In this document: piece after piece, positions 19,770 to 36,361 of the stretch
Layout: every line of letters starts with the position of its first letter
Position numbering within the stretch: the stretch's first letter is position 1
Sequence record: NC_101835.1
Source: a phage
Reading direction: 5' to 3' (one strand)
DNA: 64,000 nucleotides
Program-made: the position numbers and the translations under genes
Notes under the pieces: generated by a model
The model's database searches: none
Seen by the model: only the letters and a program-made list of their open reading frames with translations
Told to the model about the DNA's origin: nothing

Positions 19770-20486
19770 TTAGTTAACATCAATAGCACGACCAGACTGG
19801 TTGGCAATAGCCTCATCATTGGAGGTAGCAATAACACCAGAGTATTCGCGCTCATCTGGAGCAAGCGTCCAGGTATTGCGGTTAATGGTTTGTTCTGCCT
19901 CAGTCATCAGCAGATCTTTATCCTGAGTCAACAGAGAGCCTACAGGGATCGGGTTTTCCATCTCAGGGCCAGCATACTGGTTCCACCATGTAGCATCTCC
20001 TGTTCTAGGCAATCTGAAGTTGATCAGATAGTACAGTTTATTAGCCCACTTAATCCAACCCTCATCATCACAGAGAGAGGTTGTCCCAGAATCAGGCTGT
20101 GGGTAGGTGAACTGATCAAGACCTACGAAAGCCAGCCTTACAATCTCGTTCTCTTTGGTAACAACCTCAAAGAACGCTTGGTATGTTCTCGATCTTCGAT
20201 CCATGGTAGACTGGAAGTTTATGATGTTTAGCACATCCGGCTCTTGTCTTGCCACTTCCATGATCTTGTTATCAAGAACAGTCTTCATGACCTTCTTACT
20301 GAGAAAGTCCATATAAGGGAAGCCAAACAACTCGTCAAAGTACCAGCTCCCCTTCCACGTATTAAACCTCATCCACAAGCGCTGGCGCAGACTTACCTGG
20401 TTTGAATCTATCAACTCAAGACCTTTGTCTATCGCCAAATCGCCTGTCTGTGGGTCCATCAATATATCACTATAAAGCGTAGCCAT
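19770..20486 (-). CDS. hypothetical baseplate-region protein
   Basis: 238 aa ORF with GAGGG RBS; no recognisable motif. Confidence 0.35.
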   Translation of the reverse strand: MATLYSDILMDPQTGDLAIDKGLELIDSNQVSLRQRLWMRFNTWKGSWYFDELFGFPYMDFLSKKVMKTVLDNKIMEVARQEPDVLNIINFQSTMDRRSRTYQAFFEVVTKENEIVRLAFVGLDQFTYPQPDSGTTSLCDDEGWIKWANKLYYLINFRLPRTGDATWWNQYAGPEMENPIPVGSLLTQDKDLLMTEAEQTINRNTWTLAPDEREYSGVIATSNDEAIANQSGRAIDVN

Positions 20487-20498
20487 GAAAGCCCTCTA

Positions 20499-21176
20499 TT
20501 AGTGCGGTCCACTTGTCTCGCCATCAGGGCAAGAGTGGGTATGACCTTTATATTCTGCATAGAATGAATCCAAATCCACGCCAGCAGCAGTTATAATTCT
20601 ACCAGATGGGTCTATTGTAGCACCATTCATTCTGATATTCCCATCCACAGCAGCTCGCAAATTGGCAGCCCCGTTAGTGAAAGAAAACTCCCCGCTGCTG
20701 TCGCACCGTAATGTCCCACCAGGTGTTTGAAGCTCAAAATCGCCAGAAGGTGTCAGTTTAAAATAAACCCTATCATTCCATAACTCTACGTTATCAGGAT
20801 CGATCTGTAAGGCGTTTGAGTCTGAATGAACAGAGGTGATTGCCCACCCTGGAAACAGGCCGTGAGTTTGCTGATCGTCGTTATTGTTTTCATTTCTCTC
20901 TGAAAACTGCAATCCTACAACATCTCCAGCCTTAATAGGGAGTGTTAACCTTGCCTTTCCGCTGTTTGCAGACATCACCTGAATTGGAACGTCATAGATA
21001 AGAGGGTATCTCTCCACATCTCCGTCATCAAACGTAGTTTCAGCTATTGGCTGCACGGCTGCAGAAGGTATACTGTAGTCTACACTGACAACTCTGGCCC
21101 TGATACTGGTGTGGTAGTCCCTCATTATTTTTTCTATAAAAGATCTTACAGCAGCATCTTTCCTATTTATTGCCAT
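20499..21176 (-). CDS. baseplate central spike protein (gpV/gp5-like)
   Basis: 225 aa; C-terminal HTHSCPDGETSGPH resembles the HxH metal-binding apex of contractile-tail spike proteins; GAGGAGG RBS. Confidence 0.5.
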   Translation of the reverse strand: MAINRKDAAVRSFIEKIMRDYHTSIRARVVSVDYSIPSAAVQPIAETTFDDGDVERYPLIYDVPIQVMSANSGKARLTLPIKAGDVVGLQFSERNENNNDDQQTHGLFPGWAITSVHSDSNALQIDPDNVELWNDRVYFKLTPSGDFELQTPGGTLRCDSSGEFSFTNGAANLRAAVDGNIRMNGATIDPSGRIITAAGVDLDSFYAEYKGHTHSCPDGETSGPH

Positions 21177-22180
21177 TATACCTCCTCAGTTTTGTCAACA
21201 ACTCCACCCACTGTTTCCCCAAGGCCAAGCTCTGTAGTGTAATCACCACCTTCTATGGTGCCCTTATGATGCACCGTGATCACCTTATAGAAGCCTGTAT
21301 ATTGCTTGCTTTTAAGATAAATAGTGGACTCTGGGAGGATAGCTCCGTTAAGGCATGTGGTTACAGTAAGGCCAACATCCTCTCTCGGGTTTTTCTTTTT
21401 CTTTTTAGATGTCGAACCACCTTTGGCAGCAGCTTTAGCTTTTCGTTTTTTAGCAGGTTCTGGGTTTTTAGGGGTAGGAGATCCGTGCATCCCAGACTCT
21501 GCACTTATTTCAAACACAGAGTCTTTGAACCTTTTTCCAACCTTGGTCCAATACAAAGCCCCATCCTGAACGCTAAATGTTGAGTTGGTCAGCCTTGCAA
21601 ACCTGCGGAGGTTCTCTGCAGTGTTTCCAGAGAAAGCCATAGAGTATTGCAAAGTCTGGTTTCCAAAACCAACAACCCTACCTTTTGGCAAGTTCATATC
21701 CTTCAGTAGGTCATTAAGCACAGAGTTCAGAGGTGTACCTTTCTGATAAGATCTTGTGCTTTGGCACTTAATGATGTTCTCAGTGCCATCCCCAAAGATG
21801 AACTTAGTTTTTCTGGTCGGACCTTCCCACCTGTCTTCAACAAACTCCACAGTTCCGGAGAATATCAACTGGTTCTCATTATCATAGCCAGCTTCAAACA
21901 TAACTGCAAGGGCATCAGCCTGATGCATATCCAGATAGTTAACTGTATCGTCAGACAGGTTGTAAACTGTCACATAACCTTTGTTTGGCTCTTTGGTATT
22001 GTCCTTTTGTATGTCAAACTCTATATTGGCAGCACCAGTGTCTGAGCTAACTTCATAAACTCCGGAATCACTCTCCCCTTTCTTTTCAACAGATTTTGGG
22101 ATATTGGTTTTTGATTTACCGCCATGTTCTACAGGACGACCAAACAATAATCGCCATGTTCTACGTCTGTACTCTGCCAT
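21176..22180 (-). CDS. hypothetical baseplate/tail protein
   Basis: 334 aa; Lys-rich low-complexity segment (KKRKAKAAAKGGSTSKKKKKN); TAATG coupling. Confidence 0.35.
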   Translation of the reverse strand: MAEYRRRTWRLLFGRPVEHGGKSKTNIPKSVEKKGESDSGVYEVSSDTGAANIEFDIQKDNTKEPNKGYVTVYNLSDDTVNYLDMHQADALAVMFEAGYDNENQLIFSGTVEFVEDRWEGPTRKTKFIFGDGTENIIKCQSTRSYQKGTPLNSVLNDLLKDMNLPKGRVVGFGNQTLQYSMAFSGNTAENLRRFARLTNSTFSVQDGALYWTKVGKRFKDSVFEISAESGMHGSPTPKNPEPAKKRKAKAAAKGGSTSKKKKKNPREDVGLTVTTCLNGAILPESTIYLKSKQYTGFYKVITVHHKGTIEGGDYTTELGLGETVGGVVDKTEEV

Positions 22181-22560
22181 TATTCTAACCCTTGCTGTTC
22201 CTTGTAAAGATCAACCGGGGTGCCGTATACAAGTTGTAGCTCAGATCTCGCCCCAAGGTTATATCTTCCAACCCTGCCCCAATATTGATCGTCTTTAAAC
22301 GACAGCGCCATCAATCTACCTTTCGGTAAATCGTCTCTGTAATGCAGTCCGTCTAAAATATCTTGACAAGCTGTTACTTTTCTGGTTACTAAAGGGCTGT
22401 CACCTACCGGACCAAGAGATAACCACCAGGACTCATCCCTCTCATTCCATTGCATACGCATTTCATACGTCTCATTGTCTAAAACAACACGCATGGTTTG
22501 ATCAGGAAAGCCGTCAATGTCCCACACAAAGGTGATTATGCACCAATCTTTAAGTTCCAT
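22180..22560 (-). CDS. hypothetical baseplate/tail protein
   Basis: 126 aa; AAGGGGAG RBS; position after tape measure. Confidence 0.35.
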   Translation of the reverse strand: MELKDWCIITFVWDIDGFPDQTMRVVLDNETYEMRMQWNERDESWWLSLGPVGDSPLVTRKVTACQDILDGLHYRDDLPKGRLMALSFKDDQYWGRVGRYNLGARSELQLVYGTPVDLYKEQQGLE

Positions 22561-22572
22561 TACACGCTCCCC

Positions 22573-23457
22573 TTATTTTCCGTTAACTTTGTTGTAGTTT
22601 CCCTGCTCAGATGGGACTATGGTAGAAGGTCTTCCATATTCCTGATAATACCAATCCGCAGCAGATTGAGTAACACCGTTTTCATCCGTCCACATCATAG
22701 ATTTGTAGGGCTGCCACTCTTCTGCGGCATTTGTGGATGCAGTGTCTGCAAATGCCCCTGTGTCCCTCTTGTTACCTACGTTACTGCCATTCTTACAGTC
22801 GTTGACAGCACCTTTTTGCTGGGTCTTGCCTACTTTCTTAGGGTTGCTGTATACAGTTGCATTAACAACCTTGTTCAAGTAGAATGTGCGGAACTCTGTA
22901 AGTTCTACATCAAACACCATCGCAGCACCTTCACCAACAGACTTGTTGGCAGAAAGGCTGGTTATAATGTAGTTCTCAAGGAGTCTCTCCTCGGTAACCA
23001 AAGAAACCAACTGGCGCTTATTAATGATCTCAGTCAAAGCCTCCAGTGCAGCGCCTGGTCGCATAGACGCTGCAGGGTTTTTAGAGTCAGTATTCCTGTC
23101 AATGTAGTTTTGCTCATAGATTATATGTGGTGATGTATTTACCCTACCAGTAAAAGAAAATACACCATCTTTAATTACAGCGTGGTCTGACAGGGTAGAT
23201 TTATCTTCCACCGCAAACCCAGTCTTATCAACAGAATGTTTGAAAGAGTAATTCTCAACCTGATCGAAGATGATGGCAAGATCGTTAGTAAAGTTTTTAC
23301 CCTTCATCTCCGTATTGCGACCACCATAGTTAAGACCGCTGACAAACATAGTGTACTTTACATCGCTTTCAGTTTGCTGTTCTGCCTTTTCAGCCTTTGG
23401 AGATTTAACCTCTTGAGGCTTGTACAGGTCTTTTTCATCAACTATATTGCTTGGCAT
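22573..23457 (-). CDS. hypothetical tail protein
   Basis: Track ORF trimmed to internal ATG (MPSNIVDEKD...) that has a GGAGAGG RBS; first ATG has none. Confidence 0.35.
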   Translation of the reverse strand: MPSNIVDEKDLYKPQEVKSPKAEKAEQQTESDVKYTMFVSGLNYGGRNTEMKGKNFTNDLAIIFDQVENYSFKHSVDKTGFAVEDKSTLSDHAVIKDGVFSFTGRVNTSPHIIYEQNYIDRNTDSKNPAASMRPGAALEALTEIINKRQLVSLVTEERLLENYIITSLSANKSVGEGAAMVFDVELTEFRTFYLNKVVNATVYSNPKKVGKTQQKGAVNDCKNGSNVGNKRDTGAFADTASTNAAEEWQPYKSMMWTDENGVTQSAADWYYQEYGRPSTIVPSEQGNYNKVNGK

Positions 23458-23520
23458 AACCTCTCCAGGACACTCCGATACCATCTAGATATTGTATCAT
23501 AAAATAGCCGTTTTTACAAC

Positions 23521-23548
23521 ACCGATAAAATAAAGGGGGCCGGAGCCC
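23521..23548 (-). terminator. rho-independent terminator
   Basis: GGGGGCTCCGGCCCCC hairpin followed on the minus strand by TTTATTTTAT, immediately after the tape measure stop. Confidence 0.55.
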
Positions 23549-23561
23549 CCTGCACAGTTTA

Positions 23562-25898
23562 TTACCAAAGGTCGGTAGACATGAAGTTGATATCTTTATT
23601 GTTCTCCCACTCAAGTTTTGCATCAAATATTTTGTTAAACTCACCCTCATCTATTGAAATCGTGATTTTCCCATCACTGATCTCTAAAGGTAGCATTTCC
23701 ATAGTTCTTAATTGAGAAGCAAAACCAGGGCCACCTGGCAACGGAAGAGTCCCGCCCGGTAAGGTGTCCAAAGGATTAACAAATCCGTTACCTCCCGATA
23801 TGATATCTTTGCGAATCATATCGCTGATAGTATCCAGCTGCTGATTTCTTTCACTTAGTGGGTTGTAACGGTCATTAAATAATTCCCCGGCGCTTAGTAT
23901 TGTACCGATAATACCTAGCTTACCGAGCAGACCAACTTTGCCACCAGGTGTCTTGAGGCCACCTCCCCCTTTTCCTGCCGGAGCGCCACCACCAGATCCT
24001 TCTGTAGTAGCGGCACCTGCTACTCCAGCTGCACCCCTTAGAGAGCTAAGGAATTTAAAGGTTTTTACAAGCATAGATGCCATGACAAAACCTTTTGTTA
24101 GGGCGTTGACGACTAGCATGATGGCAGCAGCAAACCCTGCCCATTTAGCATAGCTAAAGGTGTCATGAAGCTCTTCAGAATATTCCTTCGTCTTAGCTGT
24201 TATGAACCCCCATTTAATCCCCCATTCAAGGAAAAACATGCGGATCTTGACTATAGTGTTGTTCAGTTCACCAACTACCCAGTTAAGGCCTCTCACAAAC
24301 CCGCTAACAAAATCACCAGAGGCATCCCACACAAATTGCAGAGTCTCACCAGTGCGGATTAGTGTATAATAGAACTCTGTTAGTTCGTCAGACCAACGGG
24401 TGAACAGTTTCTGACGAGTCAGTTCGATGAAGGTTTTCAGTCTGTTTTCTGCCAGCACGTTAGACTTCTGCATTCTTTCATAACCAGCTGCAGATGCCTC
24501 GTTCATGTACTTAGCCACATACTTCATGATCTTGGCTGTTTTAACCTCACCTTTCTTCATCATGTCCATGAACTGATCCATGGAGAGTTCAGAAAGACCA
24601 AAAGCCTCTTTGGTGGCCTTGATAAAAGGTTCGTATGCACCAGGCAATGCTTCAGCAAGTTGTTGCTTCAGTTCTTCGGACATTACTTGCCCTTTACCAA
24701 GCATTTGCTGGATTGCCATAATACCGCGCTGGTATTTTACCTCATCGGCACCATAAGCAGCAGCATACTGGGAGTATGCAGAAAACAGCTCATGCACTTC
24801 CTGATTTGTCATCTGGTTTTTGGCGTTTACCGACATCTGGGCGTAACCTTGAAGACCAGATTTGAGATCAAAACCAAGACGCATAGCCTCTTGCTGGACA
24901 AACGCAACCTCACTGTTGGCTTTGTTTGGATCTCCAGTAACAGCAGTAAGAGCAGCACTTGCCCCCTCCATCATGTGACCGGATCTGTTAACCGCAGCAA
25001 ATCCAGAAAAAGCTGTATACGCAGCTGTTGCATTAATAACAGATCTACGTAAGTCTCTCATGGCATCGCCTAGTGTAAGCGTTTGGCTGGTTGCGCTTTT
25101 AAACCCAGACTGCAGCGCTGACAGGTGGGCGTTAAAGGTTGACTTCTTCATCTCCCCGCGAGCAAACCTGGACTCTAACTCTGAGTATCCTGGCAAGCTT
25201 CCACGGAATCCGGCCCCATACTTGGCAGAAAGTCTTATCGCGGAGTTGTAAAGGTGGGTTCTCCTTGCCTCACGATCCGACATAAGTCTATTATCCATAC
25301 CAGCTTTACTGTCTCTTCTTAGCTGTCTATGATAACGATTCATAGCAGCTGTCTGAGCTTTCACAAGGTTAGGGTCGGAAGCCACACCACCCATGTTAGG
25401 GTTACCGGGGATATATTTGAAAGATTTGGCATTAGCCAAAACTCTTGCCTTAGGTGCCTTATAACCACCGTAAGACACTGGTGCAGATTTGGCAGCCTTT
25501 TTGGCCTCTTTGGCTTGCTGCTGGTAGAACTTACGCATCCTAGCCATTTCTGGATTTTTAGCGGTAAGATTACCTACAGCTTGTTTACGTCTCGCATTCT
25601 CCCTACGTTCTATTGCAGCCCTTACTGCAGCCTCTTTCTTGGCCTGTGCTACGCTCTCTCTGTGCAGTTTAGCATTTGCCTGAGATTGCTGTCTGGCAAC
25701 CCTCTGCATTGTCTGCTGGGTTTTAACAGCTACCGCCTGCCATCTACTCATGGGGTTGGCTGAGTTAAAATCCTCACCCAGTTTCCTGAACTCCCTCCCA
25801 ATACTGCGAATTTTCTCTACAGCTTTTTTGTAGGAGGAGTTCTCTATCTCAAAGCCAATCTTGTTGACTGTTGTGGCAACTATTTTGTTTGTAGCCAT
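23562..25898 (-). CDS. tail tape measure protein
   Basis: 778 aa; long helical Ala/Gln/Lys-rich N-terminal half, Gly-rich C-terminal segment; lies directly after the chaperone pair and tube/sheath genes. Confidence 0.7.
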   Translation of the reverse strand: MATNKIVATTVNKIGFEIENSSYKKAVEKIRSIGREFRKLGEDFNSANPMSRWQAVAVKTQQTMQRVARQQSQANAKLHRESVAQAKKEAAVRAAIERRENARRKQAVGNLTAKNPEMARMRKFYQQQAKEAKKAAKSAPVSYGGYKAPKARVLANAKSFKYIPGNPNMGGVASDPNLVKAQTAAMNRYHRQLRRDSKAGMDNRLMSDREARRTHLYNSAIRLSAKYGAGFRGSLPGYSELESRFARGEMKKSTFNAHLSALQSGFKSATSQTLTLGDAMRDLRRSVINATAAYTAFSGFAAVNRSGHMMEGASAALTAVTGDPNKANSEVAFVQQEAMRLGFDLKSGLQGYAQMSVNAKNQMTNQEVHELFSAYSQYAAAYGADEVKYQRGIMAIQQMLGKGQVMSEELKQQLAEALPGAYEPFIKATKEAFGLSELSMDQFMDMMKKGEVKTAKIMKYVAKYMNEASAAGYERMQKSNVLAENRLKTFIELTRQKLFTRWSDELTEFYYTLIRTGETLQFVWDASGDFVSGFVRGLNWVVGELNNTIVKIRMFFLEWGIKWGFITAKTKEYSEELHDTFSYAKWAGFAAAIMLVVNALTKGFVMASMLVKTFKFLSSLRGAAGVAGAATTEGSGGGAPAGKGGGGLKTPGGKVGLLGKLGIIGTILSAGELFNDRYNPLSERNQQLDTISDMIRKDIISGGNGFVNPLDTLPGGTLPLPGGPGFASQLRTMEMLPLEISDGKITISIDEGEFNKIFDAKLEWENNKDINFMSTDLW

Positions 25899-25952
25899 GG
25901 TTTCCTCATAATAAAAAGGGCCAGATCCCAGAAAAGGAATCCGGCCCTTAGA

Positions 25953-26201
25953 TTATCCTCTCCTGCGCTTAGCTTTCGCAGCAGCTGCGGCAGCCTTCTG
26001 CTCCCGCTCCATTTCCCTGTTTTGGACGGTATCTAGGAATTCTTCGATATCAAGATACTCACAGAGCTTCAGGAAATACGCCATATCTGCAAGATTTAGC
26101 GATTCAAAATTTTCCCCTTTGAAATTCTTGAGCACCCTGCACCAAAGAAAGTCGAACCAGTTGAGTGAACTGTTCTTGGCTGCCCACTCACTGGCCCTCA
26201 C
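25953..26201 (-). CDS. tail assembly chaperone, downstream (T-like) segment, probably expressed as a -1 frameshift fusion
   Basis: 82 aa ORF with GTG start; its frame is open upstream through the end of 26213-26686 back to the slippery site. Confidence 0.55.
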   Translation of the reverse strand: MRASEWAAKNSSLNWFDFLWCRVLKNFKGENFESLNLADMAYFLKLCEYLDIEEFLDTVQNREMEREQKAAAAAAKAKRRRG

Positions 26202-26212
26202 AACAACCTTGC

Positions 26213-26686
26213 TTATTCCTGCTCTTCCGGAGTCTGATCCAGGTTGTTCACCTGCTGAATCATACCCATCTGCTGCAACATCTCCAGAAGGCTTCCTAAA
26301 CCGTCTTGTGTGAAAAAACAGCCGTAGTTAACCTCCAGAACCTTACCTGCCAGCTTAATCATCTCCAGCAGATGTCCTGCAAACACAACATCTGGGTTAA
26401 GCCTATCCACACCATCTACGGTAATATCTTCGAACAAAATTTTAAATAACTCTTCAATAGAGTTATCATCAAGTTCTTGGAACAGGTAAGCCAGAGCAGT
26501 AGGAAGGACCTCTGCCATGTTCTGGCCGCCTGAGATAATAGATCCACCGATAGCACCTAGCGGGACAGCCACAATCTTACCGATTTTAGGCATGTTTTTC
26601 ATTGCTTTCATCGGTCCCCAGTGGGTGATCACAAAGTTGTGCCCTGCTAAATCAATCTCTGTTGTAGGTCTAAAGTTTATAGCCAT
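26213..26686 (-). CDS. tail assembly chaperone (G-like)
   Basis: 157 aa between tail tube and tape measure genes; contains slippery heptamer near its 3' end. Confidence 0.6.
   Translation of the reverse strand: MAINFRPTTEIDLAGHNFVITHWGPMKAMKNMPKIGKIVAVPLGAIGGSIISGGQNMAEVLPTALAYLFQELDDNSIEELFKILFEDITVDGVDRLNPDVVFAGHLLEMIKLAGKVLEVNYGCFFTQDGLGSLLEMLQQMGMIQQVNNLDQTPEEQE
26312..26318 (-). other. candidate -1 programmed ribosomal frameshift site T_TTT_TTC
   Basis: Zero-frame reads GGC TGT TTT TTC ACA (GCFFT); -1 frame continues HTRRFRKPSGDVAADGYDSAGEQPGSDSGRAGISKVVVRASEW... with no stop into ORF 25953-26201. Confidence 0.55.
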
Positions 26687-26800
26687 TTTATAGCATCCTT
26701 ATTAGTCATGTTGTGCACCATATTTGTGTATTTTACCATGATTATGGTGCATTGTCAATTTAACCTTTCAAGCAATTCAAGAACGTGTGTCAAAACCATA

Positions 26801-26830
26801 AAAGCAAAAAGCCCCACCCGAAGGTGAGGC
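26801..26830 (-). terminator. rho-independent terminator
   Basis: AGCCTCACC-TTCG-GGTGGGGCT hairpin followed on the minus strand by TTTTTGC, downstream of the tail tube gene. Confidence 0.55.
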
Positions 26831-26848
26831 TTATGCTAAAGTGTGCCC

Positions 26849-27322
26849 TTAGATAATACCTGCAAGACCTGCGAGGCCAGTAAGAGCACCAGTGATGTTA
26901 TCACGGTTGAGCCATGCATCCAGAATACCGATATCCCAGTCCAGTTGACCTACTTCGGTTCCGTAAGTCAGGTCAGGCTGTTTCTGGATCCAACCGATTG
27001 TGGAAATACCAGGGCCCTGGCTACCTTCCAGCAGAACCGGGAAGAATACCAGGCCAGTAATCGATGCCTGTTTCTGCCAGTCAGAAAGGTAAGCGTTCCA
27101 TACAGAAGTGTTCTGCAAAGATACAGTCATAACACCAGATTGGTTACGAGACAGGGCCGCAGACATTTCGCCATCCACACCAACGTGAGGGTAGATGTTA
27201 TCTTCATTTCTTGAAACAACGATCTTGGTGTCAGCAGCGAAGCCAGTGACACGCTGCTGCATCAGGTACAGTTTGACCTTTTTAGGGTCATAAGCATAAG
27301 GAGTTAAAATTTGAGTTTCCAT
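26849..27322 (-). CDS. tail tube protein (contractile-tail type)
   Basis: 157 aa; GQLDWD segment resembles the T4 gp19-family tube motif (LQLDWD, from memory); follows the sheath gene; AAGGAAG RBS. Confidence 0.55.
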   Translation of the reverse strand: METQILTPYAYDPKKVKLYLMQQRVTGFAADTKIVVSRNEDNIYPHVGVDGEMSAALSRNQSGVMTVSLQNTSVWNAYLSDWQKQASITGLVFFPVLLEGSQGPGISTIGWIQKQPDLTYGTEVGQLDWDIGILDAWLNRDNITGALTGLAGLAGII

Positions 27323-27332
27323 CTAGTCTTCC

Positions 27333-28709
27333 TTATTCAGTCATTGCAACAGCATTGGTGGATTTAGAACCAACTTTGTCCAGAAGGACGTTGATCCGGA
27401 TACGAACGAAGTGCAGGGCGTTGTTATACACCAGTTCTACTTTCACACCTTCCAGAACACGAGCAGCCAACTGATTGGTTGGGATCTCTGCACGTTTAGG
27501 AACTGTGATGATCGGGTCGTAGAACACATTGTTGTCTTCGTCAAAACCTGTCAGGATCGCGCCATTCTTAATGCCAGTATTGATCGGGTTGTTCATCAGA
27601 ACAGACTTGATAACCGGAAGATCATCATCAGACATCTTCATGCTTAAACCCATATTGGAGCGACGATGCATGTACCCAAACATGGACTCTTCAGATCTGA
27701 ACTTGATCCAGTGTGCAAAACGAATAGCGTCTGCATACTGACCTGAAGCGCACTTGCCTTCCCAGAAAGCACCAACACCGTTAATCATTCTGTAGAAGTT
27801 AACGTGGTTTTCCCAAATCGCCATACGCTGAGTTAAAGTCAGAGATGGTGCAATCACACCCGGCATCTGTTTTAAGTGCAAGCTGTCACCGTAAGACGGA
27901 TCGTTGGATGCCATAGCACCTATGATACCACCCTCCGGGAAGTCCTTATCTGCACGAGGATCGTACATGCCGACACTGTCATATTGTGCAGCTTTCAGTT
28001 TGGTGGCGATGTTATTATCTTTACCAGTCACATCTTCTGCAGTAGAGTAGACATGAAGCTTGTAGTTAGCCTGAGCCCACTTAGCACATGCTTCAATGTC
28101 GGTGTGGTCTTCATGGCACAGGAAGTACCAATTGTCACGCTCAGCATTGATCTTATCAACTACTGTAGAAGGTTTTTCAGCATTGGCGATATTTTTGATT
28201 GTATAGTTACCAGTATGGTAACCAACAGTACAGTCACCAGTGATGGTGAGAACACCTTCAGAAGCCTCTACAGTGATATCGTTCAAGCTATCATCTGCTT
28301 CAATTTTAGTCTTCATTGACTCTGCAATCTGAGTTGCACCTGTTCCACCAGAGATAGGCACTATCAGAGAAGTATTGTAGCTACCTTTTGCAATAGTCAT
28401 TACGACATCGGTATCAGCTGCGGCAGCAATACCTTTAAAATCTACAGTTGTCTTTTCTTTGGCCTGTCTGCCGATCATAACGTATTGTGGAGGGAATACA
28501 CCACCAAAAGCTTTTGCTGCAAACTCATACGCTGCAGAGCCTTGTGCGAAACCATCTTCCACCATCTGATCCAGCTCTGCATATACGCGAGCTCGCTCAG
28601 TGAAGTTGTTGTGGATAGCGATGAACAGGGGAGTTTCGAAACCTACAGTGTCAATAGGCTGGGTTCCGAGGTTAACTGTAACATCTACCACTTTATCTAA
28701 ATATGGCAT
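27333..28709 (-). CDS. tail sheath protein
   Basis: 458 aa; size and position (before tube, chaperones, tape measure) typical of sheath; AAGAGGAAA RBS. A large siphovirus major tail protein is not excluded. Confidence 0.5.
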   Translation of the reverse strand: MPYLDKVVDVTVNLGTQPIDTVGFETPLFIAIHNNFTERARVYAELDQMVEDGFAQGSAAYEFAAKAFGGVFPPQYVMIGRQAKEKTTVDFKGIAAAADTDVVMTIAKGSYNTSLIVPISGGTGATQIAESMKTKIEADDSLNDITVEASEGVLTITGDCTVGYHTGNYTIKNIANAEKPSTVVDKINAERDNWYFLCHEDHTDIEACAKWAQANYKLHVYSTAEDVTGKDNNIATKLKAAQYDSVGMYDPRADKDFPEGGIIGAMASNDPSYGDSLHLKQMPGVIAPSLTLTQRMAIWENHVNFYRMINGVGAFWEGKCASGQYADAIRFAHWIKFRSEESMFGYMHRRSNMGLSMKMSDDDLPVIKSVLMNNPINTGIKNGAILTGFDEDNNVFYDPIITVPKRAEIPTNQLAARVLEGVKVELVYNNALHFVRIRINVLLDKVGSKSTNAVAMTE

Positions 28710-28781
28710 TTGTTTCCTCTTAATATCTGTGCACGGATATCAAACACGCAGTGTAATCATTACACTACACAATTATAACGA

Positions 28782-29333
28782 TTACTGACCACTGTCTGTA
28801 ACCGCTTTACCAGAATTGGGTGAAGGGAAGTGTGTGGTTATTTCAGCCTTAATTCCCTGAAGATCCTCAAAAGCCCCAATGTCTGTTTCAACAAACCTTA
28901 CGTTAAATGTCAGCATCACAGTGGCTCTATTTTCATACGTCTGCTTATTCAACGGCACTCTTTGAGGTGAGATTGTTGAATTGTTAGAGTAGGCAAAGCA
29001 CGATCCCAGAGGGAAATACTTGTCATAAAACATTGGAAGGTTTATTGCTTGCAATACTCTGCTAAGTGCAGCATATGCCCTGCCACGATAAGCTGTTAAC
29101 AGATAAGTAACAGTGTAACTGTGGGTGACGTAAGCATTACCCTCCGCATCTTGAAACTCATTATCTTCCCAAGTGGTGGGATTGATCGCCAAGGTTTGTA
29201 AAAGTACAAACTCACCTTCCGGCTTCGGTATGGTAGAGCTTTCTGCCAGAACTACAGTTCTTCCTGTGGCAACCTTGACGAGCTTAGCAATGGTTGTTTC
29301 AAGATCAGAAAAAACTTTTTCGAAAGCTTCCAT
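28782..29333 (-). CDS. hypothetical head-tail joining/tail completion protein
   Basis: 183 aa ORF between capsid and sheath genes. Confidence 0.3.
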   Translation of the reverse strand: MEAFEKVFSDLETTIAKLVKVATGRTVVLAESSTIPKPEGEFVLLQTLAINPTTWEDNEFQDAEGNAYVTHSYTVTYLLTAYRGRAYAALSRVLQAINLPMFYDKYFPLGSCFAYSNNSTISPQRVPLNKQTYENRATVMLTFNVRFVETDIGAFEDLQGIKAEITTHFPSPNSGKAVTDSGQ

Positions 29334-29758
29334 CAGTTTTCTCCTTCAGGCTCTTCTACCACAAAAAATCTATATCTCCCACCACCAGAGGTAACATATG
29401 CATCGCATTTTAAAACAGTAAACCATTTCAAGTCACCACGGATGTCAGGAAGTTGAATTTGATCAGCCATTGCATATGTTCCTTCATCCGGACTATACAA
29501 CTTGGTTGAGGAGTAGACTGTAAAAGCCTCGTACTGTCTGTCACCTTCAGGGTTTATTTGAGATGAGTAATCTTTAGCCGCCCTTCCTGTCAACGGCTGC
29601 ACAACACACTCTAAGACATCAAACTCTTCATACTCAAGTTCTAACCCCTCGTTGGCAAAAGGGCCACCAACTGTTTTGTTATACACTCTGTGGCGACCTT
29701 TGAATGTTTTACGAGGTATTAGTCTGTTCTTTCCTATCAGCTTATAACCTGCTGCCAC
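29333..29758 (-). CDS. hypothetical head-tail joining protein
   Basis: 141 aa ORF; overlapping start/stop coupling with neighbours. Confidence 0.3.
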   Translation of the reverse strand: MAAGYKLIGKNRLIPRKTFKGRHRVYNKTVGGPFANEGLELEYEEFDVLECVVQPLTGRAAKDYSSQINPEGDRQYEAFTVYSSTKLYSPDEGTYAMADQIQLPDIRGDLKWFTVLKCDAYVTSGGGRYRFFVVEEPEGEN

Positions 29759-29773
29759 TCAACCCCCTTATTT

Positions 29774-30244
29774 TTACTGTCCGATCTTAAAGGTTGCAGA
29801 TTCAAGCAGCACATCGTAATGCCGCATAGCCTCGTTGAAGCCTTTCTCTTGTGCCCACTGCTCGCTAACAGTAGGATTACTAAACTGCCCAGCCTCAATA
29901 ACAAACTGGATAGCTTTGGCCCCTGTGTCCCCCATCTGCTTAAGAATAGCCTCTGCACTTGACCCTCTAGCCATAGCTCTCAACAATTTTTCTGTCAAGG
30001 TCTGTAGTTGAGTACTGTGAAATGCAAAGGCTGTCTCCATGAAATTGCGAACAGGCAGCCCGTTCCAACCGAAGTTGTGAATGGCTGCCAATGTTGCCAT
30101 ATTTAAGCCTGACGGGTGAGGTTCGTCATAAAAGCCGTAGGTTATTGTTTTACTTTCAAGTCTCACAAGTTCTTTGTAGAAGCGATCTAAACGCTTTAGG
30201 TTGAACTTTGTTTGACATTTAACCTTTAGCATTATATCCCTCAC
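29774..30244 (-). CDS. hypothetical head-tail joining protein
   Basis: 156 aa ORF in connector region. Confidence 0.3.
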   Translation of the reverse strand: MRDIMLKVKCQTKFNLKRLDRFYKELVRLESKTITYGFYDEPHPSGLNMATLAAIHNFGWNGLPVRNFMETAFAFHSTQLQTLTEKLLRAMARGSSAEAILKQMGDTGAKAIQFVIEAGQFSNPTVSEQWAQEKGFNEAMRHYDVLLESATFKIGQ

Positions 30245-30285
30245 TAATGTATTTTACCATAAAGATACATCAAAAGCAACAATTT

Positions 30286-30963
30286 TTAAAAACTGCGTTT
30301 GCGTCTTGGGTGGCGAGGAGGTTGGTTATTTAGACCACTGATAGGTGTAATACCCTGGACATCGAACGGCCCGTTGCTGTTTTCATTAAATTTAACCCGA
30401 ATTCCTTCATCTACACGAACACCACCAATGATAATCATTCTGCTGTAAGCATCTAGCTCAGAATCTACATAGTCTGGGTGTGCCAGCAGCCAATCAAGGA
30501 AATCTTTCCATTGAGCGTAGGAAGATCCACCACGAATCTCTATGGTCTCATCACCTATTTTTTCCAGACGGGAAGTTATACTTGCATTACCGCTGGACAC
30601 TTCCTGCATCATTAGCCACCGCACAAGTTGCACAAGCACATTGTACTTGAGCAGAGGTAGCTTATCAGGATCTGCCGGATAATTTAGTTTCAACTTCTCC
30701 ATGTCAAGGAATGTTTTAATTACCTCATCAGGGAGAGTTTCCTCATCAACATTGCCGAGCAACAACCTCATAATATTGATAAGAGGTTGGTCTGGATCAG
30801 GTTCCGGAAGTACAGGATCTTCTTTTGGTGGTTCTTCTGGGGTATCGACTACACCATCATGGTTAGGCGGGGACGGGATAATCTCTTCATCTTCATACCA
30901 TGCCATTTGAAAATACCTCGTAAAAATAAAGCCCCATTCCTGATTTGGAAGGGGCCTTAACAA
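30286..30963 (-). CDS. hypothetical structural protein
   Basis: 225 aa ORF; acidic. Confidence 0.3.
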   Translation of the reverse strand: MLRPLPNQEWGFIFTRYFQMAWYEDEEIIPSPPNHDGVVDTPEEPPKEDPVLPEPDPDQPLINIMRLLLGNVDEETLPDEVIKTFLDMEKLKLNYPADPDKLPLLKYNVLVQLVRWLMMQEVSSGNASITSRLEKIGDETIEIRGGSSYAQWKDFLDWLLAHPDYVDSELDAYSRMIIIGGVRVDEGIRVKFNENSNGPFDVQGITPISGLNNQPPRHPRRKRSF

Positions 30964-30965
30964 AA

Positions 30966-31811
30966 TTATGCCAGTGCAGCCTCAAAATCTTTCATCATAT
31001 TTTGGAAAGTTTTTGCCTTACTTAAGGTAACACCGTGCTCTTTGGCGAAGGTTTGGAGTGCATCTTTTGAACCACTTTTGTCATCTTCGTTGTTAAGAGC
31101 TGCGGCCTGCTGCAGTATGGCATCAATATCACTGCGAGAAGATCTTGATTCTTGTGCCTGTTCAGGATCCTGCTCAGTGCCTCCCGGTGCAGCCGGATCT
31201 GGGGATTCTTCACCGTCACCACCAGGTTCAGTAGGACCTACAGGCGGCTCCGGTTCTGGTTCAGGCGGTGGAGCTATCGTAGAAACCAGTCCAAGATTTA
31301 CAACCTGAGAACGTTTCTTAGGCCACTCAATGGTGAAAGTTTGGGTATCTTCTTCATAAACAATGTTGCATTGCTCATCGTTTATGGTCACTTTTTTAGG
31401 CATCCCTACAGGGTCCCATAGATGGCCCTCTGCCACGGAAACTTGGAAAGCCGCATCTACCTCTTTAAACACTGACGGGGTGAGTGTGATATTGACATCA
31501 CCGCTTTGCAGTGTTAAAGTGCTTTCATCAAGGTTCTCTGTGAAGAACAGAAGAATAACACCCATACGGATAGTTGAAATACCAGTATCAATTGGCAGGC
31601 CTGTATGTTTTGCAATCTTCTCGAAGAAGTCTACAATCGTTCTACATGGATAGTGAACACTGCCGATAACGAATTCTGTTGGTGGCAGCAGGGCTGATAA
31701 ACCAACATTGATTTCTGGATTATATTGTGCTAAAAATTGATAAAAACTTAACTGATTGTTGAAAACTCTTAATAGAGGATCATACTCAACTGGGTAGACG
31801 GTTCGCTTCAC
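30966..31811 (-). CDS. hypothetical structural protein with Pro/Glu-rich linker
   Basis: 281 aa; PPPEPEPEPPVGPTEPGGDGEESPDPAAPGG linker; directly downstream of capsid gene. Confidence 0.3.
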   Translation of the reverse strand: MKRTVYPVEYDPLLRVFNNQLSFYQFLAQYNPEINVGLSALLPPTEFVIGSVHYPCRTIVDFFEKIAKHTGLPIDTGISTIRMGVILLFFTENLDESTLTLQSGDVNITLTPSVFKEVDAAFQVSVAEGHLWDPVGMPKKVTINDEQCNIVYEEDTQTFTIEWPKKRSQVVNLGLVSTIAPPPEPEPEPPVGPTEPGGDGEESPDPAAPGGTEQDPEQAQESRSSRSDIDAILQQAAALNNEDDKSGSKDALQTFAKEHGVTLSKAKTFQNMMKDFEAALA

Positions 31812-31833
31812 GGGACACTCCTGTTAAACCCTA

Positions 31834-31868
31834 ATAAATAAAAAGGGGAGGGGGAGAACCCCCTCCCC
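31834..31868 (-). terminator. rho-independent terminator
   Basis: GGGGAGGGGG-TTCT-CCCCCTCCCC hairpin followed on the minus strand by TTTTTATTTAT, directly after the major capsid gene. Confidence 0.6.
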
Positions 31869-31892
31869 ATATGGGATGAATCACCGTAGTGA

Positions 31893-32906
31893 TTATTCAC
31901 TTTTCAGAGTTGCTTTAACAACCAGCTCTGGACGGGTGTTAACTGCCAGCATAGAGGTTTCAGATTCGATTTTCTGTTCTCTCAGGTAGGCAGAGTGTTT
32001 ATACCACATATACAGTTCTTGTGCTGGGGTATTTGCATCTTCCACAGTGTCAGCTGGAGCAAAGTGCAGCTGGAACATCTGATCGATACCCATAGGCATC
32101 AGGCGAGCCTCACCGTCCGGAATGTTACCAGAGATGTCTTCGATGAAGGTCATGCCTTTGTGTTCGAACACACGGTAAATGCTCTGTTCGCCACCTGCAC
32201 CCAGACGACGACGCAGCGGTTCCTGAGAAGAGCTGTAGTAGGTGTAAGCCAGCTCTACCAGCGGATGATGAACCAGTGCAGAGAAGAATTTCGGAGAGCA
32301 CAGCGCGATAATGTTGTAAGCACCAGCGTTGTCGCCAGCCTGCAGAGCAATGTGCAGACGTGCATCTTCGATTACTTCCATCGGGTCCTGTGCTGCATTT
32401 TTAGGATCGATTTCGATAGATTTCTGGGAAACGCCCCACAGTTTGTAATAGTCATACTGACAGGTTGCATCACCAGGTGCATAGGATTTACCCAGAACTG
32501 CAGCAAAAAGAGCTTTTTCACGTAGGGTTTCGTGGCTCAGACGAATACGACGAACTACACGAGTAACCACGTCTTGCACAGTTTTCGGTGCATCCGGAGT
32601 GAAGTAGCGACGGAAGTTCTGAACGTCCGCAGCAGTGATTCCCTTATCCAGCGGGAAGAACGGGATGTTCAGGTTTTTGATCTGTGCACGTTCGCTATCA
32701 ACGTAGTTACGTTCACCACCACGACGACGAGCGGCGATATCACCAACCACTTCATCAACACGTTCGATCTGTGCGATTGTTGAGGTGCCAAGATGGGTTT
32801 CAAACAGATCCATACCAGTGATCAGGCGATATTGGCGCGGAACCAGTTCAAGAGTAGCACCTAAATCAACAATACCAAAATCATCTTTACGCATTATTTT
32901 CTCCAA
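31893..32906 (-). CDS. major capsid protein (lambda gpE-like fold suspected)
   Basis: 337 aa; placed after decoration and scaffold genes and followed by a strong terminator; EHKGMTFIED resembles a lambda E segment (from memory); TTG start per track, internal ATG 4 codons in. Confidence 0.6.
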   Translation of the reverse strand: MEKIMRKDDFGIVDLGATLELVPRQYRLITGMDLFETHLGTSTIAQIERVDEVVGDIAARRRGGERNYVDSERAQIKNLNIPFFPLDKGITAADVQNFRRYFTPDAPKTVQDVVTRVVRRIRLSHETLREKALFAAVLGKSYAPGDATCQYDYYKLWGVSQKSIEIDPKNAAQDPMEVIEDARLHIALQAGDNAGAYNIIALCSPKFFSALVHHPLVELAYTYYSSSQEPLRRRLGAGGEQSIYRVFEHKGMTFIEDISGNIPDGEARLMPMGIDQMFQLHFAPADTVEDANTPAQELYMWYKHSAYLREQKIESETSMLAVNTRPELVVKATLKSE

Positions 32907-32941
32907 ATAACTTTAAAATTTTGTTTCCCAAAGATCTAGGA

Positions 32942-33316
32942 TTATTCCTGAACTTTGTTGCCTTTGGCTTCGAGAGCTTCCAGAACTGCAGCAGGTGCAG
33001 CCGTGCCGCCAGCCACTTTAAGATGTTTTTTAGCGAAGGTAACGCCACGAACAGCAACAACCAGTTTATACTTCTCGCCAACTTTCAGAGGCTCTGCCAG
33101 ATTAACTTTACCAGAATCGTCAGGCAGAAGAGCGCGGTCAACCAGTACACCAAAGGTATCTGAGCCATCTTGATTAGCCAGAGTGCCAGTTTTGGTAACT
33201 ACTGCGCCAGCAACGTGATCAGCAGTAATGGTAATTTCAATCTCTTTAAAGTTGAAACCTGCATCGCTTGCATCTACTTTGCCGAGCACGATATCAGAAT
33301 ATTGAGTGGTGATCAT
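32942..33316 (-). CDS. head decoration protein (gpD-like)
   Basis: 124 aa Gly/Val/Ala-rich small protein immediately upstream of capsid gene; GGGGAA RBS. Confidence 0.45.
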   Translation of the reverse strand: MITTQYSDIVLGKVDASDAGFNFKEIEITITADHVAGAVVTKTGTLANQDGSDTFGVLVDRALLPDDSGKVNLAEPLKVGEKYKLVVAVRGVTFAKKHLKVAGGTAAPAAVLEALEAKGNKVQE

Positions 33317-33337
33317 TATTTTCCCCTATTACGCAAA

Positions 33338-34318
33338 TTATTTATTAGATTCTTTACGTGCACGAGCCAGAGCTTTAGCGACGTTTTCAGCAATAATATC
33401 TTCAGCAGATTTAGCAATGTCATCTACTACGACATCACCATCTTTGCCTTGCTCGGTAGTTGCGAACTCATCTTTAGCTTTTTCAACTTCAGCTTCCAGT
33501 TCAGCAATACGAGCTTGGGCTTTTTCCAGCAATGCAACAACAGAAGCATTAGCTTTGTCCAGCATGAATTCGACCAGAGTTGTGTGATCTTCTTCAGTAG
33601 CGAAGCTTAACGCTTGAGCTTTTTCCAGCATTTTAGCTTTTTCAACTTCTACCTGAGCCTTGATGATTTCTTCAGCTTTTTCATTGGTAGCCTTCAGTTC
33701 TTCGAACTGTTTCAGCAGGTCCAGGTACTCTTGAGACTTGGTTACGTCTTCCACCGGATTCTCCTCGGTATTTGCGGATTTATCAACATTGTCCACAGCA
33801 TCAGTAACAACCTCTTCTGTGGTTTCCTGTGCCGCTTTAATAAGTTTCCCTTCTTCATCGAAGAGATCAGCGGTCATCTGCTCAAAAACTTGTTGGGTTT
33901 TTAACAGGGTGTATTGGTCAACAATACTTAAATCTTTACCTTCTTTAGCAGCTTTGTGAATGGTTACGTTGTCACAACGTTCTTCTAACCACTGCACACA
34001 AGCCTCTGCATCAGCCTGCGCCCACTCCCAATCTGGGTGTTCTTTTGCCCAAGCTTCTTCTTCAATCTCGAACCCGAGCAGGTGAGCCAGTGCCTTAGCA
34101 TCGTCATACCACATATCGAAGAAACGACGAAGGTATTCTTCAAAGCTAAGTTCAACAGTAACTTGGCGAAGAGCCTTAACAATATCCTCTGTCAACTGCT
34201 CAGGCTGAAGATCGCTCTTCATTAAAAGAGATACAGGTCGATTGTTAGCGCCATAGCCTTGCGCCTTATGGCACAGGGCAATCCCTTTCTCTTTAATAGT
34301 GATTGTTTTTTCAGACAT
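33338..34318 (-). CDS. scaffolding protein
   Basis: 326 aa; strongly acidic, long predicted helical/coiled-coil stretches (EELKATNEKAEEIIKAQVEVEKAKMLEKAQ); between portal and capsid. Confidence 0.55.
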   Translation of the reverse strand: MSEKTITIKEKGIALCHKAQGYGANNRPVSLLMKSDLQPEQLTEDIVKALRQVTVELSFEEYLRRFFDMWYDDAKALAHLLGFEIEEEAWAKEHPDWEWAQADAEACVQWLEERCDNVTIHKAAKEGKDLSIVDQYTLLKTQQVFEQMTADLFDEEGKLIKAAQETTEEVVTDAVDNVDKSANTEENPVEDVTKSQEYLDLLKQFEELKATNEKAEEIIKAQVEVEKAKMLEKAQALSFATEEDHTTLVEFMLDKANASVVALLEKAQARIAELEAEVEKAKDEFATTEQGKDGDVVVDDIAKSAEDIIAENVAKALARARKESNK

Positions 34319-34749
34319 TACTCATTGCCCTCTTCTACAACACTGATCCCGAAGTTTACGTTGGTGATCTCTCCAGTTTCTTCATCAACATTACCAGTTG
34401 CCTGAATGCTTAGGCCACCAACAATGCCAGCCTTCTTAGCTTCCCATAACTCAGGATTATTGTATTTAACTTTAGCAACCCAAGAGCCAGCCTTGATGAC
34501 CTGCTCAGTGCCAATTACTACAACATCAAACTCTTCTTGAATCCACGTCTTTTCAATAGTGAAAGCATCTGTAGAGGTCAAGTGAAAAAGGTTTTCAGAA
34601 ACTAGGCCTGCGGCGTATGCTGCGTCCCAGTTATCTTTAGCCTTTTTGATGGTGTCTTTACTCATCCACTCACCGTGACCATCTTTAGTGTCAGGTTCGT
34701 AGATGATTTCGTAGGAAATCATTTCTTCCTGTGGCATCTTATTCCCCAT
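34318..34749 (-). CDS. head morphogenesis protein (possible prohead protease)
   Basis: Track ORF 34318-34893 overlaps the portal 3' end; trimmed to ATG at 34749 (34737 is an alternative); no catalytic motif confirmed. Confidence 0.3.
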   Translation of the reverse strand: MGNKMPQEEMISYEIIYEPDTKDGHGEWMSKDTIKKAKDNWDAAYAAGLVSENLFHLTSTDAFTIEKTWIQEEFDVVVIGTEQVIKAGSWVAKVKYNNPELWEAKKAGIVGGLSIQATGNVDEETGEITNVNFGISVVEEGNE

Positions 34750-34804
34750 GTGGATTATTTTATCACGCCAAAGGAGGTTTTGCAACCCCCTGTGTTGATA
34801 ATTT

Positions 34805-36361
34805 TTAATTTTCCATGTTGGATATGGAATTATCTCTGGTTGATGACATCTTAGAAGTGCCGTTGCCAGTGGATCCTGCAGCCATTCCATCACCAGCCCT
34901 ACTAATGTCCTGGCCCAAGAGCTTCATCAGCTCTTCCTGATCCATGTCCTCGTCAAATCTTTCATCAAACCCGCCTACTTCAAGAATCTTATTAATTACC
35001 GCAGGAGTTTTTGGCAAGTAACCTACAGCACCGATCCTCTGGACAAACTTGGAGAAGCTCTCCATATCTACTTCTTCAATCAGACCAGGTTTCAGTTTAG
35101 GCATATCATCATCTTCAAGGATGATACCATTCAATGCCAGAAGCTGTGGAATAAGATCTTTATTGAAGGCCTCAGTGATAATATCTATATCACGCTGAAC
35201 AAAATGACCATGGATAGACTGTTTTGACTCAGACAGAGAGAAGGATCCAACGTTATCGTTACCGAGGTTAATAAAGCCAGCACCGAAACGGTCAAGAATC
35301 GCCTTCTTACGGGCATCAATCAAATCTTTAGTGGAATACTGCTTACCCATACCGTCAACCCCCTTCAGGGTCATGGAGTAAAGCTCTTTACCAGACTTAT
35401 CTCTATCAGACGGAAGTATAAAGAAACTTTGCTCACCACTATGGGCGTTTGCTGCGTCAAGCATAAGGTCTGCAACCATCCTCCCTTCCATTGAATTCGG
35501 GTCAATGCTGGCCTTGTTCAAAATATTGGAAGGAATTTTCAGCTCAAGCACACCACCAAGGTCTTTGGAACAGCCAACAACCTCAAGGTTTTCAATCAGA
35601 ACTTTCTCACGGAAAGATCTGTAGCAACCTATCATCGGTGACACACCTGCGGGGTTAGATTCTGTTCCTGACAGGGTCATGAGCATAAGCTTTTTAGCAG
35701 GGATGAAAATTTCAGGCTCATTAAAGCCTTTTGAAGGCATTGCAGCAAGAGGTCCAGCCCAGCGTGCATTCTGAGTGTTTAGAAATGCATTAGGTGATTG
35801 ATAAATACCTGTCAGTGTTCTGCTATTCTTATCAAAAACAAACGGCTCTGATCTGGACAGGCTGGCCTGAGGTCGGAATGCAATTTTATCGATAAGAAGC
35901 ATCCCGGCATATTTACCTTCTTTCTCTCTGCGGTATACTTTCTCAAACAGTGAAAAACCATACTCGTTAAAGGTAGCTGCGCTTCTTGCAATATCTCGAA
36001 GAGTTTGTTGGTTTGCCAAATTACGCAAAGAATACTCTATAAGCTCGGCAGCTTTCTTAGAGTCTTCACTTTTAACATTATAAAGGATCTTAAAATCATT
36101 GAATGCTTTCGTGATGAAAACATATTTTGTATCTAAGGCAGTAGCAACTGTGGAATCACATTTCATAGTCTCCACTGTAGCAATCAGCTGAGGCCAACGC
36201 AATTCCTCAACCATCATAGATTGCGATTCTGCCATAATTTGGGAAAGTGCGCCAGAACCGATCTCACTCATACGAACATTATGAGTTGGTGCGCCTGCGT
36301 TCCCAGATTTATTCACAGTTTTGGCTGTGGCGTTGTGTTTCCTGCGGTTCTTTTTGGACAC
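34805..36361 (-). CDS. portal protein
   Basis: 518 aa; located immediately after terminase large subunit; size and acidic C-terminus typical; GTG start with GAGGGG RBS. Confidence 0.7.
   Translation of the reverse strand: MSKKNRRKHNATAKTVNKSGNAGAPTHNVRMSEIGSGALSQIMAESQSMMVEELRWPQLIATVETMKCDSTVATALDTKYVFITKAFNDFKILYNVKSEDSKKAAELIEYSLRNLANQQTLRDIARSAATFNEYGFSLFEKVYRREKEGKYAGMLLIDKIAFRPQASLSRSEPFVFDKNSRTLTGIYQSPNAFLNTQNARWAGPLAAMPSKGFNEPEIFIPAKKLMLMTLSGTESNPAGVSPMIGCYRSFREKVLIENLEVVGCSKDLGGVLELKIPSNILNKASIDPNSMEGRMVADLMLDAANAHSGEQSFFILPSDRDKSGKELYSMTLKGVDGMGKQYSTKDLIDARKKAILDRFGAGFINLGNDNVGSFSLSESKQSIHGHFVQRDIDIITEAFNKDLIPQLLALNGIILEDDDMPKLKPGLIEEVDMESFSKFVQRIGAVGYLPKTPAVINKILEVGGFDERFDEDMDQEELMKLLGQDISRAGDGMAAGSTGNGTSKMSSTRDNSISNMEN

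Follow-up and report, generated by a model that had tools for sequence, protein, structure and literature searches.

Head and contractile-tail genes of a Vequintavirus as an anciently co-inherited virion module

The 64,000-nucleotide stretch of phage DNA analyzed here (NC_101835.1; hereafter the window, to which positions refer) carries on its minus strand a 15,863-base block of head, tail and baseplate genes, positions 20499-36361, which a sequence-only reading had taken for a mosaic virion. Gene identities were drawn from PHROG, Pfam and PDB sequence searches, the three of which agree, and they lead to a different view: the region is almost certainly the virion structural module of a Vequintavirus, i.e. 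an rV5-like, lytic Escherichia coli myovirus with a genome of ~137 kb, whose head and tail genes were anciently co-inherited and do not form a recent mosaic. Each of the main structural proteins has its match among the named chains of the virions of phiTE (9CUL, 9CC7, 9CB9, 9CUY, 9MJN) and phi92. The open reading frames (ORFs) that had been named beforehand are present on the minus strand and their identities hold (Table 1); what falls is the separate origin of head and tail.

The minus strand carries every gene of the window between 12.6 and 38.9 kb, tightly packed. Across all 15,863 bases the DNA of the region is 98-99% identical to that of the Escherichia phages Gotham (vB_EcoM_Gotham), naswa and JLBYU08, and at least 80% of the region is covered in 112 records by nucleotide comparison. 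With bov25_3, which is classified as Vequintavirus slur16, the identity is 98% over 26 kb. The genus criterion of the International Committee on Taxonomy of Viruses is ~70% identity across the genome, and over the 64-kb window both the nucleotide identity and the collinearity with members place the phage within Vequintavirus. At the protein level, 117 records share at least 99% identity in the portal and 117 share at least 95% in the sheath.

For the question of mosaicism, 24 structural proteins were compared with those of bov25_3 (Vequintavirus), PVP-SE1 (Seunavirus), vB_Ec-G1 (Phapecoctavirus), SUSP2 (Ounavirinae) and JG004 (Pakpunavirus). All five lineages are collinear from the terminase and portal to the spike and sheath initiator, and amino acid identity drops in parallel for head and tail proteins across them. 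In PVP-SE1 it amounts to 71% for the portal, 67% for the capsid protein, 71% for the large terminase (TerL), 60% for the sheath, 82% for the tube and 60% for the hub; the corresponding values are 43, 42, 42, 28, 42 and 34% in vB_Ec-G1 and 28, 25, 35, 23, 23 and 23% in SUSP2, and JG004 shows 28, 31, 36, 28 and 20% for the first five, with no match for the hub. Searching by tblastn located homologues of the sheath in 1081 phage records, of the capsid protein in 1207 and of the portal in 1286. Grouped by organism name, the sheath, capsid protein and portal are found 341, 339 and 338 times among Escherichia phages, 115 times each among Rheinheimera phages and 40 times each among Klebsiella phages, and records named after Salmonella hold 97 sheaths and 91 capsid proteins. 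These near-equal counts within each name group indicate that the combination of head and tail is old and stably inherited. The head and tail genes are thus an anciently co-inherited unit of the Vequintavirinae and of the phi92-like, Felix O1-like and PAK_P1-like myoviruses. Gene identities, collinearity and the co-divergence of head and tail were all demonstrated directly in this analysis.

The alternative, in which recombination brought together a lambdoid or siphovirus-type head cassette and the tail and baseplate cassette of a myovirus, starts from real similarities, since the order portal, protease, scaffold, decoration and capsid protein corresponds to B-C/Nu3-D-E of lambda, the capsid protein belongs to the Pfam family Phage_cap_E (PF03864; 138.6 bits at a cutoff of 22.9), of which lambda gpE is itself a member (1.7e-72), and homologues of the decoration protein share the β-tulip fold of gpD (PMC13450770, PMC11972413). 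Nevertheless, the likeness of the window's head to that of lambda is limited to these three points, the decoration fold being known from the literature through relatives. The portal matches only Portal_Mu, whereas lambda gpB belongs to Phage_portal_2 (PF05136), the protease is of the Peptidase_S78_2 (XkdF-like) type and not S49 as gpC, the scaffold is encoded by a separate downstream gene, unlike Nu3, which is nested with gpC, and gpD is placed in the Pfam family HDPD, whereas the decoration protein of the window has no Pfam match. BLASTP comparisons with gpE (E=0.36), gpD (E=15) and gpB (E=1.9) were not significant, so that close kinship to lambda was dropped. Furthermore, gpD-like β-tulip decoration proteins are common on myophages (PMC12609058), no comparison shows a discontinuity in identity at the junction of head and tail, and the identical arrangement of head plus tail recurs in over 1000 records and across five lineages of subfamily level. 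A recombinant origin of the virion module is therefore very improbable. In lambda itself the head is T=7 and the tail does not contract. Of the "lambda-like" head, gene order, capsid family and, through relatives, the decoration fold remain, while portal and protease come from other families; likewise, the description "myovirus with a lambda-type capsid" is right about the contractile tail and the E-family capsid protein, but the head as a whole is not that of lambda.

Whether the tail is contractile depends on the 458-residue protein, whose identification as the sheath is borne out by matches to solved chains, namely the sheath of phiTE (4.5e-144) and gp130 of phi92 (2.7e-48). For sheath, tube, capsid and spike such sequence matches (E 1e-18 to 1e-144) were taken as stronger than structure prediction. 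A separate tube protein (3e-66), a sheath initiator (2.4e-59) and a tail terminator (1.5e-41) are also encoded. With the sheath assigned, the phage combines a contractile tail with a capsid protein of the E family and a small decoration protein, and contraction itself would be expected by analogy with its relatives. That the 458-residue protein is instead an oversized major tail protein of a non-contractile siphovirus, an option left standing earlier on the caution that size alone is no proof and otherwise unsupported, is excluded, because it aligns from end to end with the phiTE sheath, which has been modeled in extended (9CB9) and contracted (9CBA) tails, because separate tube, initiator and terminator proteins accompany it, and because the tail of rV5, 121 x 17 nm when extended, contracts in electron microscopy to leave a sheath of 44 x 20 nm (PMC3606486). 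The tube had been called gp19-like, which holds for the general tube fold, as described for phi92 gp131, but not for membership of the T4 gp19 family in Pfam: no match to that family was obtained at E<=0.01, the sole Pfam match being KPP10_Orf10.

Several points weigh against the assignment of the region to a Vequintavirus virion module. The scaffolding role, the triangulation (T) number, iron binding and frameshifting are carried over from relatives, the 281- and 156-residue proteins had no solved homologue in the PDB sequence search, and the visible part of the genome is 64 kb, so that the genus assignment rests on that part. Otherwise nothing substantive stands against it.

Real mosaicism does occur in the region, yet it is smaller, lying within the genus and within the head: positions 31950-34100 are a true recombination patch. 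In a sliding-window comparison with bov25_3 the structural block is 96-100% identical except for this 2.2-kb stretch, where values range from 58 to 88% and fall to 43% in a 50-bp window at the junction of the capsid and decoration genes. Within the cassette lie the decoration gene, the capsid gene except for its final ~20 codons and the scaffold gene except for its initial ~70 codons. Synonymous divergence (dS) from bov25_3 is 0.87 for the capsid protein, 1.11 for the decoration protein and 0.87 for the scaffold, and thus about tenfold above that of the flanking portal, protease, 281-residue, sheath and hub genes (0.04-0.10), while ratios of nonsynonymous to synonymous divergence (dN/dS) of 0.10-0.19 within the cassette indicate purifying selection. 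The capsid protein is 99.7% identical to that of Gotham but only ~87% to those of most vequintaviruses, whereas all 117 records have a sheath and a portal of 95-100% identity; against the majority allele, amino acid identity is 87% for the capsid protein, 72% for the decoration protein and 84% for the scaffold. The decoration and scaffold allele of the window occurs in the same 14 records (naswa, Gotham, JLBYU08, JEP1, JES2013 in two records, O157 typing phage 4, MiataMamis, PDX, Mangalyan, ECP26, S127 BCL3, EdH4 and nomine), the count for the capsid protein also being 14, and ~101-103 records, among them an rV5 derivative and FFH2, have the other allele.

On the flanks of the cassette, any two of the window, bov25_3 and MiataMamis are about equally similar (97.5-98.4%); inside it, the window shares 95.5% identity with MiataMamis, and both share 78% with bov25_3, which indicates that the history of the cassette is decoupled from that of the backbone. 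Both alleles are equally far from PVP-SE1 (66-67% for the capsid protein, 56-58% for the scaffold), which points to a sister lineage of Vequintavirus as the donor rather than a different subfamily. That the cassette is co-adapted and entered as a single unit through homologous recombination from such a lineage, so far unsampled, is a proposal on which belief and doubt are about evenly balanced. The capsid, decoration and scaffold proteins of one allele may only function together, and selection might maintain both forms, for instance by way of capsid stability or of host defenses that sense the capsid. A literature search returned no description of capsid-gene recombination in Vequintavirus, although its coverage was incomplete and the absence proves nothing; exchange of the capsid cassette within the genus is apparently undescribed and is in any case a modest side observation. 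A second divergent patch lies outside the region, in the tail fiber gene at 12651-16457 (1268 amino acids), where positions 13000-14250 are hypervariable, at 54-91% nucleotide identity to bov25_3 with sides of 97-99%, a pattern typical of exchange of the receptor-binding region.

Table 1. Structural genes and the divergent cassette, in order of decreasing position in the window (aa, amino acids; E-values follow the matches).
Feature	Position	Strand	Properties and matches
Portal, 518 aa, rV5 gp64 equivalent	34805..36361	-	phrog_113 1.9e-88; Pfam Portal_Mu (PF06074) 2.5e-11; phiTE portal 9CC7_A 1e-181; phi92 gp120 5.8e-111
Prohead protease, XkdF/S78_2 type	34318..34893	-	Pfam Peptidase_S78_2 5.1e-17; phrog_3017 head maturation protease 9e-13; BASEL annotation "prohead protease"
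Putative scaffolding protein, 326 aa, acidic	33338..34318	-	isoelectric point (pI) 4.53; D+E 73 vs K+R 40; between protease and decoration genes
Divergent capsid-shell cassette, 2.2 kb	31950..34100		77.9% nucleotide identity to bov25_3; flanks 98.2% and 98.4%
Trimeric capsid decoration/cement protein, 124 aa, rV5 gp61 equivalent	32942..33316	-	phrog_2680 7.2e-37; phiTE DEC 9CUL_e 6.6e-21; phi92 gp123 0.034
Major capsid protein (MCP), HK97 fold, Pfam lambda-E family, 337 aa, rV5 gp60 equivalent	31893..32906	-	Phage_cap_E PF03864 3.2e-40; phiTE MCP 9CUL_G 3.8e-104; phi92 gp124 5.7e-71
Acidic protein, 281 aa, role not assigned	30966..31811	-	phrog_3259 7e-67
Head-to-tail adaptor	30286..30963	-	phiTE adaptor 9CC7_D 1.4e-42; phi92 gp126 2e-4
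Neck/tail-completion-like protein, 156 aa	29774..30244	-	phrog_222 "tail completion or Neck1" 1.9e-41
Head completion (stopper) protein	29333..29758	-	phiTE head completion 9CC7_E 2e-30; phi92 gp128 1.2e-6
Tail terminator	28782..29333	-	phiTE tail terminator 9CC7_F 1.5e-41; phi92 gp129 0.007
Contractile tail sheath, 458 aa, rV5 gp53 equivalent	27333..28709	-	phrog_205 1e-118; Pfam DUF3383 3e-12; phiTE sheath 9CB9_A 4.5e-144 (residues 3-454); phi92 gp130 2.7e-48
Tail tube, 157 aa, rV5 gp52 equivalent	26849..27322	-	phiTE tube 3e-66; phi92 gp131 1.2e-30; Pfam KPP10_Orf10 (PF11681) 7e-9
Tail assembly chaperone	26213..26686	-	phrog_3840 1.3e-68
Chaperone extension ORF, 82 aa, -1 frame	25953..26201	-	open frame downstream of slippery heptamer
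Tape measure protein, 778 aa, pI 9.7	23562..25898	-	phrog_5255 E=0
Tube initiator (Dit-like)	22573..23484	-	phiTE tube initiator 9CUY_K 2.7e-43; phi92 gp135 2.2e-12
Baseplate plug/spacer	22180..22560	-	Pfam Pam3_gp18 2.9e-18; phiTE 9MJN_df 2.4e-24; phi92 gp136 2.2e-15
Baseplate hub	21176..22180	-	phrog_196 2.3e-83; phiTE hub 9CUY_X 2.9e-108; phi92 gp137 8.4e-50
Central membrane-piercing spike, 225 aa, HxH apex	20499..21176	-	Pfam PF18352 1.4e-9; phiTE baseplate chain 9CUY_Y 5.3e-62; phi92 spike crystal structure 3PQI 2.5e-18
Sheath initiator, just beyond the left edge of the region	19770..20486	-	phiTE sheath initiator 9MJN_d6 2.4e-59; phi92 gp139 7.2e-14

Among the head genes, the earlier calls of a portal, an acidic scaffold, a small decoration protein and an E-like capsid protein are upheld by PHROG, Pfam and phiTE matches, and in the case of the scaffold by its low isoelectric point and the annotation of its homologue as "head scaffold protein" in the BASEL records RudolfGeigy and EduardKellenberger. 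No Pfam family scored above threshold for the scaffold, and its product is a putative scaffolding protein by position, charge and homologue; several records label it "head stabilization/decoration protein." The protease gene between portal and scaffold had gone unmentioned. Its ORF overlaps the portal gene by 89 nucleotides and the domain starts at residue 53, so that the start codon is uncertain. Both phrog_1530 and several GenBank/RefSeq records (MiataMamis, JES2013, JG004) name this gene a "DNA methyltransferase," which looks like a propagated misannotation. Both phiTE DEC and phi92 gp123 are β-tulip proteins (PMC11972413, PMC13450770); a single-sequence AlphaFold2 model of the window's decoration protein, with a mean predicted local distance difference test (pLDDT) of 38.9 and a predicted template modeling score (pTM) of 0.34, was too poor to use. 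Downstream of the capsid gene, the 281-residue protein gave no Pfam or PDB match and is poorly conserved beyond the genus. At the position of this single ORF, the Salmonella phage PVP-SE1 (L007, 13454-18127) has ~4.5 kb of extra genes, gp66-gp70, between the capsid protein and the adaptor, including one for a 918-residue "possible tail protein."

In the tail, the chaperone gene contains an in-frame slippery heptamer, T_TTT_TTC, at 26318-26312 (codon 124), from which the -1 frame runs uninterrupted through 119 codons and ends with the 82-residue ORF, giving a predicted fusion of ~243 residues. The heptamer and the open -1 frame are also present in bov25_3, PVP-SE1, vB_Ec-G1 and SUSP2 and were not found in JG004. 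Chaperone and extension are annotated as two separate genes in the records viewed; the pair is probably made through a -1 frameshift. The sheath gene of the Pseudomonas phage JG004 (L011, 8156-10815) is annotated with 1110 nucleotides and aligns only to residues 1-364 of the window's sheath; next come a "putative endonuclease" and, after it, a 525-nucleotide "virion structural protein." A mobile endonuclease element may interrupt this sheath gene.

The prediction of a spike with an HxH apex is confirmed by the sequence of its C-terminus (...YKGHTHSCPDGETSGPH), in which the apex is H212-T-H214, by the match to 3PQI (2.5e-18) and by the invariance of H212 and H214 in the spikes of the five lineages. 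PF18352, the N-terminal OB-fold domain of such spikes, covers residues 27-95, and the alignment with 3PQI spans residues 8-218, which gives the succession of OB-fold domain and β-helix seen in iron-loaded spikes of the phi92 and P2 gpV type. In phi92 an iron ion is held by three HxH motifs, as cryo-electron microscopy (cryo-EM) shows (PMC13450770), and the window's spike would be expected to bind iron likewise.

The same genes in the same order are found in rV5 and other vequintaviruses, the closest records being naswa, vB_EcoM_Gotham and JLBYU08, and mass spectrometry of the rV5 virion has identified gp52 as tube, gp53 as sheath, gp60 as capsid protein, gp61 as decoration protein and gp64 as portal (PMC3606486). 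The window differs from the rV5-type majority in holding the minority allele of scaffold, decoration and capsid genes (~78% nucleotide identity). phiTE, a Pectobacterium phage of the genus Certrevirus, belongs to the same subfamily, Vequintavirinae, but to another genus and host. Its full virion has been solved by cryo-EM (PDB 9CUL, 9CC7, 9CB9, 9CBA, 9CUY, 9MJN), with the tail extended in 9CB9 and contracted in 9CBA (PMC11972413). Homologues of its portal, decoration, capsid, adaptor, stopper, terminator, sheath, tube, tube initiator, plug, hub, spike and sheath initiator proteins are present in the window (E 6.6e-21 to 1e-181), the decoration protein being the least conserved chain matched. 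phiTE also has a hexamer-centre "Pagoda" protein and flagellotropic fibers. The Escherichia phage phi92 has been solved by cryo-EM in both forms, extended and contracted, and has a T=13, HK97-fold capsid with lambda-like β-tulip cement trimers and a spike apex that holds iron (PMC13450770). The order in the window corresponds gene for gene to gp120-gp139 of phi92, with homologous sheath, tube and hub, and the spikes of both, that of phi92 being known from iron-loaded crystal structures (3PQI, 3PQH), combine an OB-fold domain, a β-helix and an HxH apex. By contrast, protein identity in the phi92-like genome vB_Ec-G1 is only 25-43%, and the fiber sets differ.

On the model of these relatives, assembly of the virion would begin with the protease and the acidic scaffold building a procapsid on the portal. 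The HK97-fold shell would consist of the capsid protein, with trimeric β-tulip decoration proteins cementing it, presumably on the T=13 lattice of phiTE and phi92, and adaptor, stopper and terminator would link head and tail. The sheath would polymerize from the sheath initiator around the tube, the length of which would be set by the tape measure protein, with the chaperone pair, probably produced via the -1 frameshift, aiding tail assembly. A simple baseplate of tube initiator, plug, hub and sheath initiator would carry the trimeric spike. Once the baseplate is triggered, the sheath would contract and drive the tube and the spike, putatively tipped with iron at its HxH apex as in phi92, through the outer membrane.

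Beyond the region, a group I intron (Rfam RF00028, 37636-38478; 50.3 bits at a gathering score of 50) with an Endonuclease_7/HNH-type ORF at 37660-38250 divides the large terminase gene (36464-38894, minus strand). The gene is uninterrupted, with 1548 nucleotides, in bov25_3 and MiataMamis, and an intron has been reported in the TerL gene of rV5 (PMC3606486). Six tRNA genes lie at 40432-41156 on the minus strand, for Met, Thr, Ser, Tyr, Arg and one other; the sixth, at 40589-40687, is given by ARAGORN as "tRNA-???" with a four-base anticodon and by Rfam as a weak tRNA (35.5 bits), and relatives annotate tRNA-Pro in the matching cluster. Among the database records, MG065647-MG065676 ("Campylobacter phage C7, C15, A12a, A116 ..."), which carry the label of Campylobacter jejuni phages, share 96-100% identity with E. 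coli vequintaviruses, and the sheath of C7 is 100% identical to that of the window; a host mislabel or contaminating coliphages are the likely explanation.

As stated, the finding holds little new biology, since the virion type was already known from the descriptions of rV5 and phi92 and atomic structures are now available for phiTE and phi92. It does show that neither a siphovirus nor mosaicism is indicated by a lambda-like order of head genes together with an E-family capsid protein. The functional names established in phiTE and phi92 can be transferred to many vequintavirus entries that now read "hypothetical protein," including the mislabeled protease and scaffold. The cassette with its two alleles offers a clean natural case of joint exchange of capsid, decoration and scaffold genes, and could bear on how stable the capsids of therapeutic vequintaviruses are or on how sensitive these phages are to capsid-sensing defenses.

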